A stretch of DNA of 38,759 nt, taken from NCBI RefSeq assembly GCF_003334255.1, contig NZ_QOWU01000056.1; one strand, given 5' to 3'. Source of the DNA: Escherichia coli. Lineage in GTDB: Bacteria > Pseudomonadota > Gammaproteobacteria > Enterobacterales > Enterobacteriaceae. Below, in pieces: positions 913 to 26,324 of the stretch. A program made the translations under genes and the position numbers. The notes beneath the pieces are model-generated. The model was not told the origin of the DNA. It did no database searches and saw nothing but the letters and a program-made list of their open reading frames with translations. Positions within the stretch are counted from its first letter, which is position 1, and each line of letters begins with the position of its first letter.

Positions 913-2340
913 ATGAGCGATAAAAAGAAGCGCAGTATGGCGGGTTTGCCGTGGATCGCGGCGATGGCCTTCTTCATGCAGGCACTTGATGCCACTATTC
1001 TTAATACCGCCTTACCCGCAATCGCTCATAGCCTTAATCGTTCTCCTCTCGCGATGCAATCAGCCATCATCAGTTATACGCTGACGGTGGCGATGCTTAT
1101 TCCGGTAAGCGGATGGCTAGCCGATCGCTTCGGTACGCGTCGCATTTTTACCCTTGCCGTGAGTCTGTTCACATTGGGTTCTCTGGCCTGCGCACTTTCT
1201 AATTCGCTACCACAGCTGGTTGTCTTCCGGGTTATTCAGGGGATAGGCGGCGCAATGATGATGCCTGTTGCTCGGCTGGCCTTACTGCGCGCTTATCCTC
1301 GTAATGAACTTCTTCCAGTATTGAATTTTGTCGCCATGCCGGGTCTGGTGGGGCCAATTTTAGGCCCCGTTCTTGGCGGCGTGCTGGTCACCTGGGCAAC
1401 CTGGCACTGGATATTTTTAATCAATATCCCCATAGGTATTGCGGGCCTTCTTTACGCGCGCAAACATATGCCCAATTTCACCACCGCACGACGCAGATTC
1501 GATATCACTGGCTTTTTGCTGTTTGGCCTCAGCCTTGTTCTCTTCTCAAGCGGAATAGAGCTATTCGGGGAAAAGATTGTCGCCAGCTGGATTGCCTTGA
1601 CGGTAATTGTCACCAGCATCGGGTTACTGCTTCTCTATATTCTCCATGCACGACGCACGCCAAACCCATTAATTTCATTAGATTTATTTAAAACCCGCAC
1701 TTTCTCGATCGGTATCGTAGGCAATATTGCAACCCGTCTGGGGACCGGCTGTGTACCGTTCCTTATGCCATTGATGTTACAGGTAGGATTTGGTTATCAG
1801 GCGTTTATTGCTGGCTGTATGATGGCACCGACAGCGTTAGGTTCCATTATTGCAAAATCGATGGTTACCCAAGTCTTACGTCGTCTGGGCTATCGCCATA
1901 CGTTAGTGGGGATCACGGTGATTATTGGGCTAATGATCGCTCAGTTCTCTTTGCAATCACCAGCAATGGCTATATGGATGCTGATCTTGCCGTTGTTTAT
2001 ATTAGGGATGGCTATGTCGACGCAGTTTACCGCGATGAATACCATCACACTTGCCGATCTGACCGATGACAATGCCAGCAGCGGTAACAGTGTTCTGGCG
2101 GTCACGCAGCAACTGTCGATTAGTTTAGGCGTTGCTGTAAGTGCGGCCGTCCTTCGCGTTTATGAAGGAATGGAAGGCACAACGACTGTCGAACAATTCC
2201 ACTATACGTTTATCACAATGGGCATTATTACTGTTGCTTCAGCAGCAATGTTCATGCTTCTGAAAACAACCGATGGTAATAATTTGATCAAAAGACAGCG
2301 TAAATCTAAGCCGAACCGCGTTCCATCAGAATCGGAGTAA
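913..2340 (+). CDS. hsrA: MFS-family multidrug/efflux transporter HsrA (YieO)
   Basis: 475-aa ORF, highly hydrophobic with many predicted TM segments; position between yieP and rbsR. Confidence 0.9.
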
Positions 2341-3298
2341 GTTGTAATCGTTGTTGCTGAAGGGTCGGCTGGGTTATCCGATGGATGAGTACATCAATCG
2401 CCAGCTCCCCCAGTTCATCTTTCGGTTGGTGGATAGTGGTTAATGGTGGCGTCATAAAGCTTGCCAGTTCGATATCGTCATAGCCAATCACCGCGATATC
2501 CTGCGGAACCTGTAACTCTGCCTGATATAACGCCTGGTAAACGCCAACAGCCATAGCGTCATTTCCGGTAAAGACGGCCTGAGGACGCAGCGGATGTGAT
2601 AGCAGTTGGCGCATAGCGTCAAACCCGCCGTTAAATTCAAAATCACCAGTGACTTCATAGCCATCAGGAATGTTGAGACCCGCACGTTTCATCGCCGCCC
2701 GATAACCTTCCAACCGCAGGCGCGCCGGAGTTTTATCCAGCGGGCCGGTAATACAGGCGATACGGGTATGACCTTTATCGATCAGATATTGCGTTGCTAA
2801 GTCTCCGCCCAGCAACGAGTTATCCTGAATAAGATCGCTGTCGCCATCGAACGGAGCCCAGTCCATCATCACAGTAGGCACTGTCGGATAACGTTGCATG
2901 ATTTCACGCGAAGGTTGATGCGTTTCGGTGCACAGTAACAGCAAGCCATCAACGCGTTTTTGCATCAGCGTTTCCAGATTGCGATTCATCCGCTGTTCAT
3001 CGCCTTCGGTATTGCAAAGGACGAGACTATAACCGCGTTCGAAGCAGCTGCGTTCAACGCCACGCACCAGTTCTGAATAGAAAGGATTGGTACTGGCAGT
3101 GATCAACATGCCAATGGTATGTGTTTGATTGAGTTTGAGGCTACGCGCCAGAGCTGATGGCGCGTAATTGAGTTCTTTAATCGCCGCTTCAACTTTGGCG
3201 GTAATCGCTTCACTGACGAAGCGATCTTTATTGATAACGTGAGAAACTGTTGAGGTAGAAACGCCCGCCAGGCGGGCAACATCTTTCATTGTAGCCAA
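2306..3298 (-). CDS. rbsR: ribose operon repressor RbsR (LacI family)
   Basis: 330-aa ORF; N-terminal LacI-type HTH ([24 protein letters not shown]); immediately downstream of rbsK. Confidence 0.95.
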
Positions 3299-3301
3299 GC
3301 G

Positions 3302-4231
3302 TCACCTCTGCCTGTCTAAAAATGCGTCGATCTCTTCACGCCACGGTACGGAAGGTTGTGCGCCTTTACGTGTTACGGCAATCGCAGCGGCAGCATGGGC
3401 AAAACGAATCGCCTCTGGCAATGGTTTTTCTTCCAGCAATGCCGTGATTAACGCACCGTTAAAGGTATCTCCGGCAGCAATGGTATCGACAGCCTGCACC
3501 CGGAATCCAGGAACGCGCTGACCTTCACCATTCACGCTAGCCCATACACCACGACTTCCTAAAGTAATCAGTACAGTACGGATACCTTTTTCATGCAGTA
3601 CCTGCGCCGCCTTCGCTGCATCTTCATCATTTTCAACACGAATACCGGTGAGCTTTTCTGCTTCCGTTTCGTTTGGCGTAATAATGTCCACCAGCGCCAG
3701 CAGTTCGTCAGGAAGTTCGCGAGCCGGAGCCGGGTTAAGCGCAACGATAGTCTTATTTTGATGGGCGATTTTCGCCGCTGCCATCACACTTTCGAGTGGT
3801 GATTCCAGCTGCATTAATAATGCTGACGCGTTGGCAATACGCTCACGTTGCGCTTCCACCAGCGCCGGGGAAAGGGCAGCATTAGCGCCGGCATGAATAC
3901 CGATGACATTCTCACCTTCGCCATTAACAAAAATCAGCGCCACACCTGTTGATTCGCCTTTGATCACGCTGACCGGAGTAATATCAATGTTATCAGTGGC
4001 GAGCTGCTGGCGAACGCTCTCACCAATGCTGTCATCACCCGTACAGGCAATAAACGCGATATTCGCACCGCTACGCCCAGCAGCCACAGCCTGATTCGCG
4101 CCTTTGCCGCCAAATGCAACCTGATAGTGGTTACCGGTTACGGTTTCGCCTGGAGTAGGAAAAGATTGAAGATTAAGAATGTGGTCAGCATTAATGCTGC
4201 CAAGAACAACGAGGCTGCCTGCGTTTTGCAT
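3302..4231 (-). CDS. rbsK: ribokinase
   Basis: ORF track gives 318 aa from a GTG at 4258; recognised RbsK begins MQNAGSLVVLGSINADH at the ATG at 4231 (309 aa); PfkB-family motifs. Confidence 0.9.
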   Translation of the reverse strand: MQNAGSLVVLGSINADHILNLQSFPTPGETVTGNHYQVAFGGKGANQAVAAGRSGANIAFIACTGDDSIGESVRQQLATDNIDITPVSVIKGESTGVALIFVNGEGENVIGIHAGANAALSPALVEAQRERIANASALLMQLESPLESVMAAAKIAHQNKTIVALNPAPARELPDELLALVDIITPNETEAEKLTGIRVENDEDAAKAAQVLHEKGIRTVLITLGSRGVWASVNGEGQRVPGFRVQAVDTIAAGDTFNGALITALLEEKPLPEAIRFAHAAAAIAVTRKGAQPSVPWREEIDAFLDRQR

Positions 4232-10431: not shown

Positions 10432-11928
10432 ATGGCTCACCCTCATTTATTAGCGGAAAGAATTTCCCGCCTGAGCAGTTCGTTGGAAAAGGGGCTTTAT
10501 GAACGTAGCCACGCCATCCGCTTGTGTTTATTAGCGGCATTAAGTGGTGAAAGTGTGTTCCTCCTTGGCCCGCCAGGTATTGCCAAAAGTTTGATCGCCC
10601 GGCGCTTAAAATTCGCCTTTCAGAATGCCCGCGCGTTTGAATATCTGATGACCCGCTTCTCCACGCCGGAAGAAGTTTTTGGTCCCCTTTCTATTCAGGC
10701 GCTAAAAGATGAAGGGCGCTATGAACGTTTAACCAGCGGTTACCTGCCGGAAGCAGAAATTGTCTTTCTGGATGAGATCTGGAAAGCGGGCCCGGCAATT
10801 CTTAATACCTTGCTCACCGCCATTAACGAGCGCCAGTTCCGCAACGGTGCACACGTAGAAAAAATCCCGATGCGTCTGCTGGTGGCGGCCTCCAACGAGC
10901 TGCCGGAAGCAGACAGCAGTCTGGAAGCGTTATATGACCGCATGCTGATTCGTCTGTGGTTAGATAAAGTGCAGGATAAAGCGAATTTCCGCTCCATGCT
11001 GACCAGTCAACAGGATGAAAACGACAATCCGGTTCCTGATGCCTTGCAGGTCACAGATGAAGAATATGAACGCTGGCAGAAAGAGATTGGTGAAATTACG
11101 CTGCCCGATCATGTATTTGAGCTGATTTTTATGCTGCGCCAGCAACTGGATAAATTACCGGATGCGCCTTATGTCTCGGATCGTCGCTGGAAAAAAGCGA
11201 TCCGATTATTGCAGGCCAGCGCCTTTTTTAGCGGTCGCAGTGCTGTTGCCCCGGTAGATCTCATTTTGCTGAAAGATTGCCTGTGGTATGACGCGCAAAG
11301 CCTGAATTTGATACAACAACAAATTGATGTATTGATGACCGGTCACGCCTGGCAACAGCAAGGGATGTTGACTCGCCTTGGCGCGATTGTGCAACGTCAC
11401 CTGCAACTCCAGCAGCAACAAAGCGATAAAACAGCCTTAACGGTAATTCGTCTGGGCGGCATTTTCAGCCGTCGTCAGCAGTATCAACTTCCTGTTAACG
11501 TTACTGCTTCCACTCTGACTCTACTGCTGCAAAAACCGTTAAAACTGCATGATATGGAAGTGGTTCATATCTCCTTTGAGCGTAGCGCGCTGGAACAGTG
11601 GCTGAGCAAAGGTGGTGAAATTCGCGGTAAACTGAACGGTATCGGCTTTGCCCAGAAACTGAATCTGGAAGTTGATAGCGCCCAACATCTTGTCGTTCGC
11701 GATGTAAGTTTACAAGGCAGTACGCTGGCACTTCCCGGTTCATCGGCTGAAGGTCTGCCTGGTGAAATAAAACAACAACTGGAAGAGCTTGAAAGCGACT
11801 GGCGCAAGCAACACGCTTTATTCAGCGAACAGCAAAAATGTCTGTTTATCCCTGGCGACTGGTTAGGTCGCATTGAAGCCAGCCTACAGGATGTCGGTGC
11901 ACAGATTCGCCAGGCACAACAATGCTAA
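10432..11928 (+). CDS. ravA: MoxR-family AAA+ ATPase RavA
   Basis: 498 aa starting [14 protein letters not shown]; Walker A GPPGIAKS; ORF track start is 8 codons upstream. Confidence 0.93.
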
Positions 11929-13373
11929 CGCTGGATACGCTTAATGTGATGCTGGCCGTCAGCGAAGAGGGATTGATCGAAGAGATGATCATCGCACTGC
12001 TGGCCTCACCGCAGCTGGCGGTCTTCTTTGAAAAATTCCCACGCCTGAAGGCGGCAATCACTGATGATGTTCCCCGCTGGCGTGAAGCGCTGCGCAGTCG
12101 GCTGAAAGATGCCCGAGTCCCGCCGGAACTCACCGAAGAGGTGATGTGCTATCAGCAAAGCCAGCTCCTCTCCACGCCACAGTTTATTGTGCAGCTACCA
12201 CAGATCCTGGACTTACTGCATCGTCTGAATTCTCCATGGGCAGAACAAGCCCGACAGTTGGTTGATGCTAACAGCACGATCACTTCAGCGTTACACACGC
12301 TTTTTCTCCAGCGTTGGCGTTTAAGTCTGATCGTGCAAGCAACGACGTTAAATCAACAGCTATTAGAAGAAGAACGCGAACAACTGTTGAGTGAAGTTCA
12401 GGAACGCATGACGCTGAGCGGACAACTTGAACCGATTCTCGCAGATAACAATACTGCAGCTGGTCGTCTGTGGGATATGAGCGCCGGTCAGCTTAAACGT
12501 GGCGACTATCAGTTGATTGTGAAATACGGTGAATTTCTTAACGAACAGCCGGAACTGAAACGCCTGGCAGAGCAGCTGGGGCGTTCTCGGGAAGCCAAAT
12601 CAATACCGCGCAACGATGCGCAGATGGAAACCTTCCGCACCATGGTGCGCGAACCGGCGACGGTTCCTGAGCAGGTTGATGGTCTGCAACAAAGCGATGA
12701 TATTTTACGTCTCCTGCCGCCAGAACTGGCGACACTAGGGATAACGGAACTGGAGTATGAGTTTTACCGTCGGCTGGTGGAAAAACAGTTGCTCACCTAT
12801 CGCCTGCACGGTGAGTCGTGGCGTGAAAAAGTGATCGAACGTCCGGTGGTACATAAAGATTACGATGAACAGCCGCGCGGGCCGTTTATTGTCTGTGTGG
12901 ATACTTCCGGCTCAATGGGCGGCTTTAATGAACAGTGTGCGAAAGCGTTCTGCCTGGCCTTGATGCGCATTGCTCTCGCAGAAAACCGGCGCTGCTATAT
13001 TATGCTATTTTCCACCGAGATCGTCCGTTATGAGCTTTCAGGCCCACAAGGCATCGAACAAGCAATCCGTTTTTTAAGCCAGCAGTTTCGTGGCGGCACC
13101 GATCTTGCCAGTTGTTTTCGCGCCATTATGGAACGCTTGCAAAGCAGGGAATGGTTTGATGCCGATGCGGTGGTGATTTCTGATTTTATCGCTCAGCGGT
13201 TGCCTGACGACGTGACGAGTAAAGTGAAAGAGCTGCAGCGGGTACATCAGCATCGCTTTCATGCCGTGGCGATGTCGGCACACGGCAAACCCGGCATCAT
13301 GCGCATTTTCGATCATATCTGGCGCTTTGATACCGGGATGCGAAGCCGCCTGCTCAGACGCTGGCGGCGATAA
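11922..13373 (+). CDS. viaA: VWA-domain protein ViaA
   Basis: 483-aa ORF overlapping the ravA stop by 7 nt; C-terminal VWA MIDAS-like motif (DTSGSM). Confidence 0.93.
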
Positions 13374-13377
13374 ATTA

Positions 13378-14370
13378 TTACAGCAGAGAAGGGACGCTCT
13401 CGCGAACAGCAGCTGGCCATACTCCACACTGAACCTGGCCGATATGCGGCAGTTGCAGCAGCAGCATAGTCAAACGAGACTGGCCGATACCGCCGCCGAT
13501 GGTCTGCGGCATTTCACCGCGCAGCAGCGCCTGATGCCACTCCAGCTCCAGGCGATCTTCGTCACCGGTCAGCGCCAGTTGATGCTTCAGCGTGTCGGCA
13601 TCTACACGGATCCCCATGGAGGAAAGCTCAAACGCATCTTCCAGTACCGGGTTCCACACCAGAATATCGCCGTTCAGACCCGCATGGCCCAGCTCTGACG
13701 GGGTGCTCCAGTCATCATAATCCGGTGCGCGCACGTCGTGGCGATGACCATCGCTCAGCTTGCCGCCAATCCCGACAAGGAATACCGCGCCAAGATCTTT
13801 CGCTATCGCCCGCTCACGCCCTTTGGCATCAAGATCCGGATAACGAGACAGTAACTCCTGGCTGTGTACGAAGTGGATCTGATCCGGCAGGAACGGTGCC
13901 AGGCCAAACTCTTCGCTAACCGCAGCTTCGGTTGCTTTAATTCCCGCCCAGATCGCCTCTACCGTGCTTTTCAGAGTCGAGAATTGACGCTCACCGTCGC
14001 CCATTACGCGTTCCCAGTCCCACTGGTCAACATAGACCGAGTGCAACGGAGAAAGACGGTCTTCATCGGGGCGAAGGGCTTTCATGTGCGTGTACAGCCC
14101 TTCGCCCGCGCTGAAGTCGTGTTGCCCTAAGGTCTGACGTTTCCACTTCGCCAGTGAATGAACCACTTCGAACTGGGCATCAGGCAGAGCTTTCACTTTT
14201 ACCTGCACCGCTTTTTCACAGCCCGACAAGTTATCCTGCGTGCCATCCCCCACACGGCTAAGAATCGGCGCCTGGACTTCGATCAGCCCCAGACGTTCTT
14301 CCAGTTGACGAGAAAAGTGAGATTTCACGAAGCTAATTTGACGTTGTTTGGCAATGTAAGCGGTTTTCAT
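13378..14370 (-). CDS. asnA: aspartate--ammonia ligase (asparagine synthetase A)
   Basis: 330-aa ORF starting [19 protein letters not shown]; divergent from asnC. Confidence 0.95.
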
Positions 14371-26028: not shown

Positions 26029-26324
26029 GTGTGACCCGTCCTGAATAGCGTTCACATAGATCCTGCTGATATAAAACCCCCCTGTTTTCCTGTTTATTCA
26101 TTGATCGAAATAAGAGCAAAAACATCCACCTGACGCTTAAATTAAGGTACTGCCTTAATTTTCTGCAGACAAAAGGCGTGACGATGGTCGAAAATGGCGC
26201 TTTCGTCAGCGGGGATAATCCGTTATTGAACAATTTATCCTCTGTCCATTTCACGATGAAAAAAATGTAGTTTTTTCAAGGTGAAGCGGTTTAAATTCGT
26301 TCTCAAATTACAGTCAGGACGCGT

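Follow-up and report, generated by a model that had tools for sequence, protein, structure and literature searches.

The genes hsrA and rbsR of Escherichia coli face each other and share their 3′ ends, and the question raised by this locus is how such an overlap came about and whether it does anything for the two genes that carry it. It was addressed here for a window of 38,759 nucleotides, meaning the whole stretch of DNA analysed (contig NZ_QOWU01000056.1 of assembly GCF_003334255.1), for which a first-pass annotation had reported a 35-bp tail-to-tail overlap of hsrA (+) and rbsR (−) and had concluded that each transcript must run into the opposing gene, with transcriptional interference or antisense effects as possible consequences. 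The features at this end of the window are the following.

198–890, + strand: yieP, placed from the ORF list and the annotation, a GntR/FadR-family regulator and first gene of the yieP-hsrA operon (PMC11340327)
913–2340, + strand: hsrA (yieO), 475 aa, a 14-TM DHA2-type MFS transporter, with its TAA stop at 2338–2340
2306–3298, − strand: rbsR, 330 aa, the LacI/PurR-family ribose repressor, with a TTG start at 3298–3296 and a TAG stop at 2308–2306
2306–2340, both strands: the 35-bp tail-to-tail coding overlap, read from the sequence
2308–2337, + strand: the lineage-specific C-terminal extension of HsrA (residues 466–475), outside the family profile and antisense to the RbsR C-terminus

The overlap is limited to the two 3′ ends, and both stop codons sit within it, the TAG of rbsR reading 'cta' on the + strand at 2306–2308. 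The share of hsrA consists of its 11 final sense codons and its stop, and that of rbsR of its 10 final sense codons, part of the 11th, and its stop. Codon phase across the overlap sets hsrA position 1 opposite rbsR position 1, hsrA position 2 opposite rbsR position 3 and hsrA position 3 opposite rbsR position 2.

The stretch belongs to the E. coli chromosome, as a 1.1-kb probe over the junction matched 5,417 of 5,426 complete genomes at 95–100% identity. The gene order yieP, hsrA, rbsR, rbsK, rbsB ... kup, ravA, viaA, asnA is that of strain MG1655 in reversed orientation, and coordinates were converted as window = 3941525 − MG1655 coordinate; the conversion was valid at hsrA and viaA alike, revealing zero net indel between the two. 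In the MG1655 RefSeq annotation, rbsR lies at 3938227–3939219 (+) and hsrA at 3939185–3940612 (−), with the same 35-bp overlap, and the hsrA/rbsR and ravA/viaA overlaps were both identical in a second RefSeq genome. A shorter, 95-nt probe of the junction was found in 5,394 of the 5,426 complete E. coli genomes at an identity of at least 95%. Both genes were annotated under this probe in 11 of 12 sampled rows, the remaining row being a partial (66%) match with hsrA only.

Both reading frames are genuine conserved genes with orthologues in 80 species. RbsR matched the NCBIfam equivalog NF007743 with 697 bits over residues 1–330 of the 330-position profile, and PurR aligned up to RbsR residue 329, so that the RbsR C-terminus is part of the conserved LacI/PurR core. 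The sequence of PDB entry 9ny7 is identical to RbsR. HsrA matched the NCBIfam MdtD subfamily NF007799 (MdtD-type DHA2 MFS; 459 bits) over residues 13–465 of its 475 residues; Pfam MFS_1 covers residues 17–406 and ends before the NF007799 match does. It is the tail, the last 10 residues of HsrA, that coincides with the overlap.

The first-pass annotation had named one circumstance that would undo the overlap, a misassigned stop codon. Both stops were read in the sequence itself, both ORFs are long, and the curated-family matches of their products extend to the protein ends or close to them. The reading of the overlap as an annotation or sequencing artefact, by a misplaced stop or an assembly frameshift, has next to no probability, since it is at odds not only with the directly legible stops but also with the same sequence class in 5,394 complete E. 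coli genomes, with the recurrence of the 35-bp overlap in independently assembled genomes of 34 other species, and with tblastn alignments of HsrA that reach residue 475 in Citrobacter and Salmonella. With ORFs, sequence and MG1655 annotation in agreement, the 35-bp overlap of hsrA and rbsR is real. Like the overlap of ravA and viaA, it is already known from the E. coli reference annotation, and neither is surprising.

The first-pass annotation had further proposed that related genomes be checked for preservation of the overlap. For this comparison, species-representative genomes were scanned with HsrA, which yielded 80 Enterobacteriaceae loci, and hsrA stops were placed by walking from 45 codons upstream. 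In 80 of 80 species representatives hsrA and rbsR were convergent and essentially free of a spacer, with values between a gap of 3 nt and an overlap of 53 nt. The following classes were observed, with the window included in the counts.

2–3 nt gap, n = 8: Kluyvera, Phytobacter
4-nt overlap, n = 26: many genera, the commonest state other than 35 nt, with the stops overlapping as TTAA, CTAA, TTAG or CTAG
9-nt overlap, n = 6: mainly Kosakonia
24-nt overlap, n = 1: K. oryzendophytica (Kosakonia oryzendophytica), TGA changed to GGA
35-nt overlap, n = 35: Escherichia, Salmonella, Citrobacter, Intestinirhabdus, Enterobacter, Leclercia
53-nt overlap, n = 5: Lelliottia, Huaxiibacter, rbsR TAG changed to TTG or TCG, adding 6 codons

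The exact 35-bp overlap was thus preserved in 34 other species representatives, while the remaining representatives differed in spacing. Stop losses of later date were seen on either gene, in Lelliottia, where rbsR gained 6 codons, and in Kosakonia oryzendophytica.

A neighbour-joining tree was computed from the DNA of both genes outside the junction and rooted at its midpoint. Every 35- and 53-nt case fell into one clade, in which the 53-nt cases were nested as a derived state; this implies a single origin of the long overlap and no reversal. The polarity from 4 nt to 35 nt is inferred from this midpoint-rooted tree and from the many genera in which the 4-nt form occurs, which suggest that the short form is the older one.

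Aligning the junctions on the rbsR stop revealed how the classes differ. In the 4-nt class, hsrA ends in ...cac aag ccT TAA or ...cac aag aaa gcT TAG, the His codon 'cac' lying 5 or 8 nt from the rbsR stop, and HsrA terminates as ...KERHK(K)A. The 35-nt class reads ...cac aaa cCT AAA CCG ..., where this distance is 4 or 10 nt, and the 9-nt class, mainly Kosakonia, uses the third frame, the distance being 6 nt. These spacings show that a 1-nt length change in an A-rich run of lysine codons moved the hsrA frame. The old hsrA stop persists in the window out of frame, as cTAA at 2306–2309. Antisense to rbsR, in the frame of hsrA, stops occur once per 13 codons on average (median 8), and an extension of 11 codons is therefore of the length expected by chance.

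Owing to the codon phase in the overlap, no third position of rbsR can change synonymously without replacing a residue of the HsrA tail. Constraint at these sites was assessed in a protein-guided codon alignment of 39 species of the overlap clade and 41 other species, with Met and Trp codons excluded. In the overlap clade, the third-position diversity of rbsR was 0.25 in the last 11 codons against 0.43 gene-wide, the lowest value of 320 windows, whereas in the other lineages it was 0.45 in the last 11 codons and 0.45 gene-wide, ranking 166 of 320. Comparison with random sets of 10 codons in the overlap clade gave p ~0.0014, a value based on 10 informative codons and uncorrected for phylogeny. 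The same result was obtained with a smaller set lacking 10 species, which were set apart by an N-terminal length difference.

The third base of the codon for Leu(−11) of RbsR forms the hsrA stop. This residue was encoded by CTT or CTC in 40 of 40 species of the overlap clade, and by CTG (17), CTC (9), CTT (7) or other codons (4) elsewhere. CTT and CTC are the sole Leu codons at this position that yield an hsrA stop, TAA or TGA. This pattern suggests a mild dual-coding cost on rbsR and possibly selection holding the hsrA stop in place; it does not imply that the tail itself is important. It also shows that tail or stop is not entirely neutral, and the constraint signal fits a reading of the overlap as a pure by-product less well.

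Transcription across the junction was considered on both strands. A pattern scan for an intrinsic terminator (hairpin plus T-run) found none near 2306–2340 on either strand, and 151-nt folds computed per strand and compared with shuffled sequences revealed no unusual stability at the junction (z −1.14 and −0.14). A bidirectional intrinsic terminator at the hsrA/rbsR junction was accordingly rejected, as the scan gave no site and the folds were unremarkable. Within the first 14.6 kb, strong intrinsic terminators were present only after rbsB and kup. An Rfam scan of the whole window placed no RNA family near the hsrA/rbsR or the ravA/viaA overlap. A coding overlap without a spacer and without an intrinsic terminator means that each mRNA must run into the partner gene.

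Published data on Rho-dependent termination and on 3′ ends in MG1655 (Adams et al. 2021, PMC7815308) were placed on the window. They contain a bicyclomycin-sensitive Rho termination region named 'antisense rbsR' at MG1655 3938923 (−), which corresponds to window position ~2602 (+), with a score of 2.78 and p 7.6e-6. This adds one feature to those given above.

2550–2650 (approximate), + strand: Rho termination region of the hsrA-strand transcript, ~262 nt past the hsrA stop (PMC7815308)

The published Rho regions have a resolution of hundreds of nucleotides. On the + strand, C exceeds G at 2450–2549 and 2600–2749, and these patches are compatible with a Rho loading region. A further Rho region on the same strand lies within hsrA (MG1655 3940281 (−), window 1244 (+), score 2.16; PMC7815308). 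On the strand of rbsR, the same source lists a Rho region within rbsR (MG1655 3938387 (+), window 3138 (−), score 3.77) and a Term-seq 3′ end within rbsR just past a hairpin (MG1655 3938325 (+), window 3200 (−)). Both lie early in rbsR, and they should limit the rbs transcription that reaches the junction; no rbs-strand 3′ end inside hsrA is listed in the supplements of Adams et al. 2021 (PMC7815308). The claim that transcripts read through into the opposing gene is therefore upheld as far as it follows from a 35-bp coding overlap without spacer or intrinsic terminator, and the Rho region antisense to rbsR agrees with it in part.

The 35-bp overlap of hsrA and rbsR is likely to be a convergent overlap of the ordinary kind that arose from a shifted hsrA stop, with Rho-dependent termination taking place inside the opposing gene. 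The junction would have been without an intergenic spacer throughout the Enterobacteriaceae, and the 4-nt stop/stop state was probably ancestral. The ancestor shared by Escherichia, Salmonella, Citrobacter, Enterobacter, Leclercia and Lelliottia would have undergone a length change of 1 nt in the A-rich lysine codons at the end of hsrA, which threw the old stop out of frame. Translation would then have gone on for another 11 codons, on the strand antisense to the last, conserved beta-strand region of RbsR, as far as the next in-frame stop. The extension of HsrA would have been retained since then, with a mild added constraint on rbsR synonymous sites, and we infer a neutral origin of the overlap. 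The transcript of each operon would end inside the opposing gene, on the hsrA strand by Rho-dependent termination ~260 nt into antisense rbsR according to the published data; Rho-dependent termination may operate on both strands.

Two other readings give the overlap a function, and both draw on the evidence above. The C-terminal extension of HsrA might be adaptive, for instance as a tail that serves regulation, targeting or stability in the cytoplasm, with the overlap kept for the sake of ~10 residues. The extension ends at an identical stop position throughout the clade (40 of 40 species) despite near-saturated synonymous divergence, the synonymous variability of rbsR drops to about half opposite the tail in this clade only, and both changes seen at Leu(−11) preserve the stop, from TAA to TGA. 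What makes this reading doubtful is the tail itself, which lies beyond the family profile and in which most of the free positions are variable (K-P-[NST]-[RPH]-[VA]-[PQ]-S-[EK]-[SQPR]-[EG]), while its seemingly fixed residues are set by the RbsR amino acids via the codon phase. Moreover, the tail is absent from many genera, that of Kosakonia differs, and the constraint test comprised few sites and no phylogenetic correction.

The other functional reading concerns the transcripts rather than the tail. In a working convergent excludon, ribose-induced transcription of rbs would proceed into hsrA from its 3′ side, and vice versa, which would lower expression of the partner via polymerase collision or RNase III cleavage of the duplex and would tie ribose use to the YieP-HsrA efflux module; yieP-hsrA has been described as an operon adjoining the rbs operon (PMC11340327). 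The forced overlap of the transcripts, the ~260 nt that the hsrA-strand transcript covers antisense to rbsR until Rho ends it (PMC7815308) and the spacer-free convergent layout in 80 of 80 species speak for it. Of 58 MG1655 RNA-seq samples, 50% or more support each of the 165 convergent excludons of the E. coli 'excludome', and rbsR-hsrA is one of them (ExcludonFinder, PMC12288877). The criterion of ExcludonFinder is the overlap of coverage-defined transcript ends (PMC12288877), however, which any expressed pair with overlapping coding regions satisfies, so that this listing is automatic. Full-text literature searches found no report of reciprocal expression, RNase III processing or a phenotype at the rbsR/hsrA junction. 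A spacing that varies from −3 to +53 nt among genera argues that no particular overlap is required; the Rho region and the Term-seq 3′ end early in rbsR should curb rbs read-through to hsrA, and Rho curtails the antisense extension from the hsrA side. We regard a working excludon as quite unlikely, and the term 'excludon' fits rbsR-hsrA only as a description of transcript overlap. Very improbable, in our assessment, is the more far-reaching view that the junction is a conserved regulatory device, in which ribose-induced rbs transcription and YieP-activated hsrA transcription would be antagonistic and the low synonymous variation of rbsR would reflect selection on the tail, the stop position or an RNA duplex, and not just on RbsR. 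The ordinary convergent overlap with a shifted hsrA stop is thus retained as the preferred reading.

The second overlap in the window, which the first-pass annotation had put at 7 nt and had taken to suggest translational coupling, is co-directional. Its features are the following.

10432–11928, + strand: ravA, a MoxR-type AAA+ ATPase of 498 aa, with its ATG at 10432 from the annotated length of 1497 nt and its TAA stop at 11926–11928
11922–13373, + strand: viaA, the VWA-domain partner of RavA, 483 aa
11922–11928, + strand: the ravA stop/viaA start overlap ATGCTAA, 7 nt, read from the sequence
11912–11914, + strand: AGG, a weak Shine-Dalgarno-like motif that lies inside ravA, 8–10 nt before the ATG of viaA, and is kept in five genera in the form cAGGc

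The ravA frame ends at 11928 and the ATG of viaA is at 11922, viaA lying in the +1 frame relative to ravA. The MG1655 RefSeq annotation (viaA 3928152–3929603, ravA 3929597–3931093) has the same 7-nt overlap and confirms its extent. The corresponding junctions of four other genera are given below.

Citrobacter: ATGcTGA, 7 nt
Cronobacter: ATGcTGA, 7 nt
Klebsiella: ATGA, 4 nt
Buttiauxella: TAATG, 1 nt

The frame relation of viaA to ravA was constant across these four junctions, and ViaA has 483 aa in most of the best 120 homologues. A misannotated viaA start was considered and rejected on the basis of this length and of the conserved N-terminus and junction.

RavA and ViaA interact, forming a complex. 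Their genes are co-directional (+), with no room for a promoter between them, and the literature regards them as a single operon controlled by sigma-S and Fnr (PMC9973319). Short overlaps have been tied to termination-reinitiation coupling and are enriched among genes for subunits of heteromeric complexes (Huber et al. 2023, PMC10666635). The known operon, the interacting products and a stop/start overlap kept at 7, 4 or 1 nt make coupling a reasonable prediction, and the 7-nt overlap most likely supports translational coupling of ravA and viaA by termination-reinitiation.

For biology at large these findings are of little import, as convergent and stop/start overlaps are common and the hsrA/rbsR pair is already catalogued. 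The comparative work provides a clean, traceable case of the birth and change of an overlap, with a measurable cost at the synonymous sites of the partner. Two practical points follow from it: an 'excludon' listing, being automatic for expressed pairs with overlapping coding regions, is to be read with caution, and editing of the last 11 rbsR codons alters the HsrA tail or its stop.

Comparison with known systems places both overlaps in established classes. With termination-reinitiation pairs (PMC10666635), ravA/viaA shares co-transcription, interacting products, a constant relative frame and a weak upstream Shine-Dalgarno sequence. Its 7 nt are rarer than 4 or 1 nt but fall inside the −8 to +10 nt class of that study, and coupling of ravA and viaA is predicted. 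With Rho-terminated convergent transcripts (PMC7815308, which cites older genome-wide work with bicyclomycin), the hsrA/rbsR junction shares a bicyclomycin-sensitive region antisense to rbsR, downstream of hsrA, and the lack of an intrinsic terminator, and similar Rho regions flank the viaA/asnA junction (PMC7815308); it differs in that such termination is documented at this junction for the hsrA strand only.

With excludons (PMC12288877), the junction has in common the convergent genes and the listing of the pair, and its transcripts are predicted to overlap. The defining trait of that class is reciprocal repression together with RNase III processing, whereas rbsR-hsrA was assigned to it by transcript overlap alone, and here the transcript overlap would be a by-product of the coding overlap and not of a long 3′ UTR. 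The closest likeness is to the convergent overlapping gene pairs, of which E. coli has ~75 (PMC4161906) and which are generally ascribed to 3′ extension following stop loss (PMC2716372). As in those pairs (PMC4161906, PMC2716372), two bona fide genes on opposite strands share their 3′ ends alone, a stop has moved, and 4-nt stop/stop and longer forms coexist among relatives. Nothing essential sets hsrA/rbsR apart from this class, the hsrA event being a 1-nt frame change instead of a point mutation of the stop.

The start of rbsR is tightly packed against rbsK, and the 5′ part of the gene carries a perfect hairpin:

3138-3225, minus strand: stretch of rbsR holding the perfect hairpin GATCGCTTCGTCAGTGAAGCGATT, which lies about 75-95 nt into the gene
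3296-3304, minus strand: junction with the annotated rbsR start codon TTG, 3 nt past the rbsK TGA stop

In MG1655, a Term-seq 3′ end maps to window position 3200, immediately past this hairpin, and a Rho termination region with a score of 3.77 is located within rbsR at window position 3138 (PMC7815308). The hairpin, the Term-seq 3′ end and the Rho region suggest premature termination or processing within rbsR, by which both RbsR synthesis and read-through toward hsrA would be lowered. As a separate observation, TTG is a rare start codon; a GAGG is found approximately 5 nt upstream of it, and an ATG follows three codons downstream.

Matching of probes across the hsrA/rbsR junction against 5,426 complete E. 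coli genomes revealed a few dozen genomes without most or all of the junction, about 30 as judged with the 95-nt probe and about 70 with the 1.1-kb probe; for one ETEC strain, the 1.1-kb probe matched over 75 nt only. The rbs-hsrA region of these genomes has presumably undergone deletions or insertions.

Among the E. coli genomes sampled, the NCBI pipeline labels hsrA (913-2340) as 'mdtD: multidrug transporter subunit MdtD', because the protein exceeds the cutoff of subfamily model NF007799 (459 bits vs 426). This gene, hsrA (yieO), is distinct from the mdtD of the mdtABCD operon, and the label is a misleading carry-over.

Two database records were found to be odd. A single Salmonella Infantis record (P0007, among the best ViaA homologues) is a 785-aa protein with RavA domains joined to ViaA, probably because a frameshift or a sequencing error merged the two frames where ravA and viaA overlap. 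The assembly recorded as Chryseobacterium sp. 18061 includes an hsrA-rbsR locus of Enterobacteriaceae type (L035), nearly identical to the one in Citrobacter sp. 18056 (L027), which stems from the same project; the Chryseobacterium record is probably mislabelled or contaminated.

Two further features lie elsewhere in the window:

26084-26241, minus strand: enterobacterial sRNA STnc410 (Rfam, 188 bits)
13371-13380, viaA on plus, asnA on minus strand: the two stop codons, TAAattaTTA, with a 4-nt gap

STnc410, located upstream of glmU and close to where the atp operon ends, was the sole Rfam match at gathering score in a scan of the whole window. The viaA/asnA pair is a second convergent junction without a spacer, the gap being 2-3 nt in Klebsiella, Buttiauxella, Cronobacter and Citrobacter. 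In MG1655, antisense 3′ ends and Rho regions are reported on either side of it, at 3928243 (+) and 3928440 (+) inside viaA and at 3928016 (-) inside asnA (PMC7815308), and the published excludome list also includes asnA-viaA (PMC12288877).
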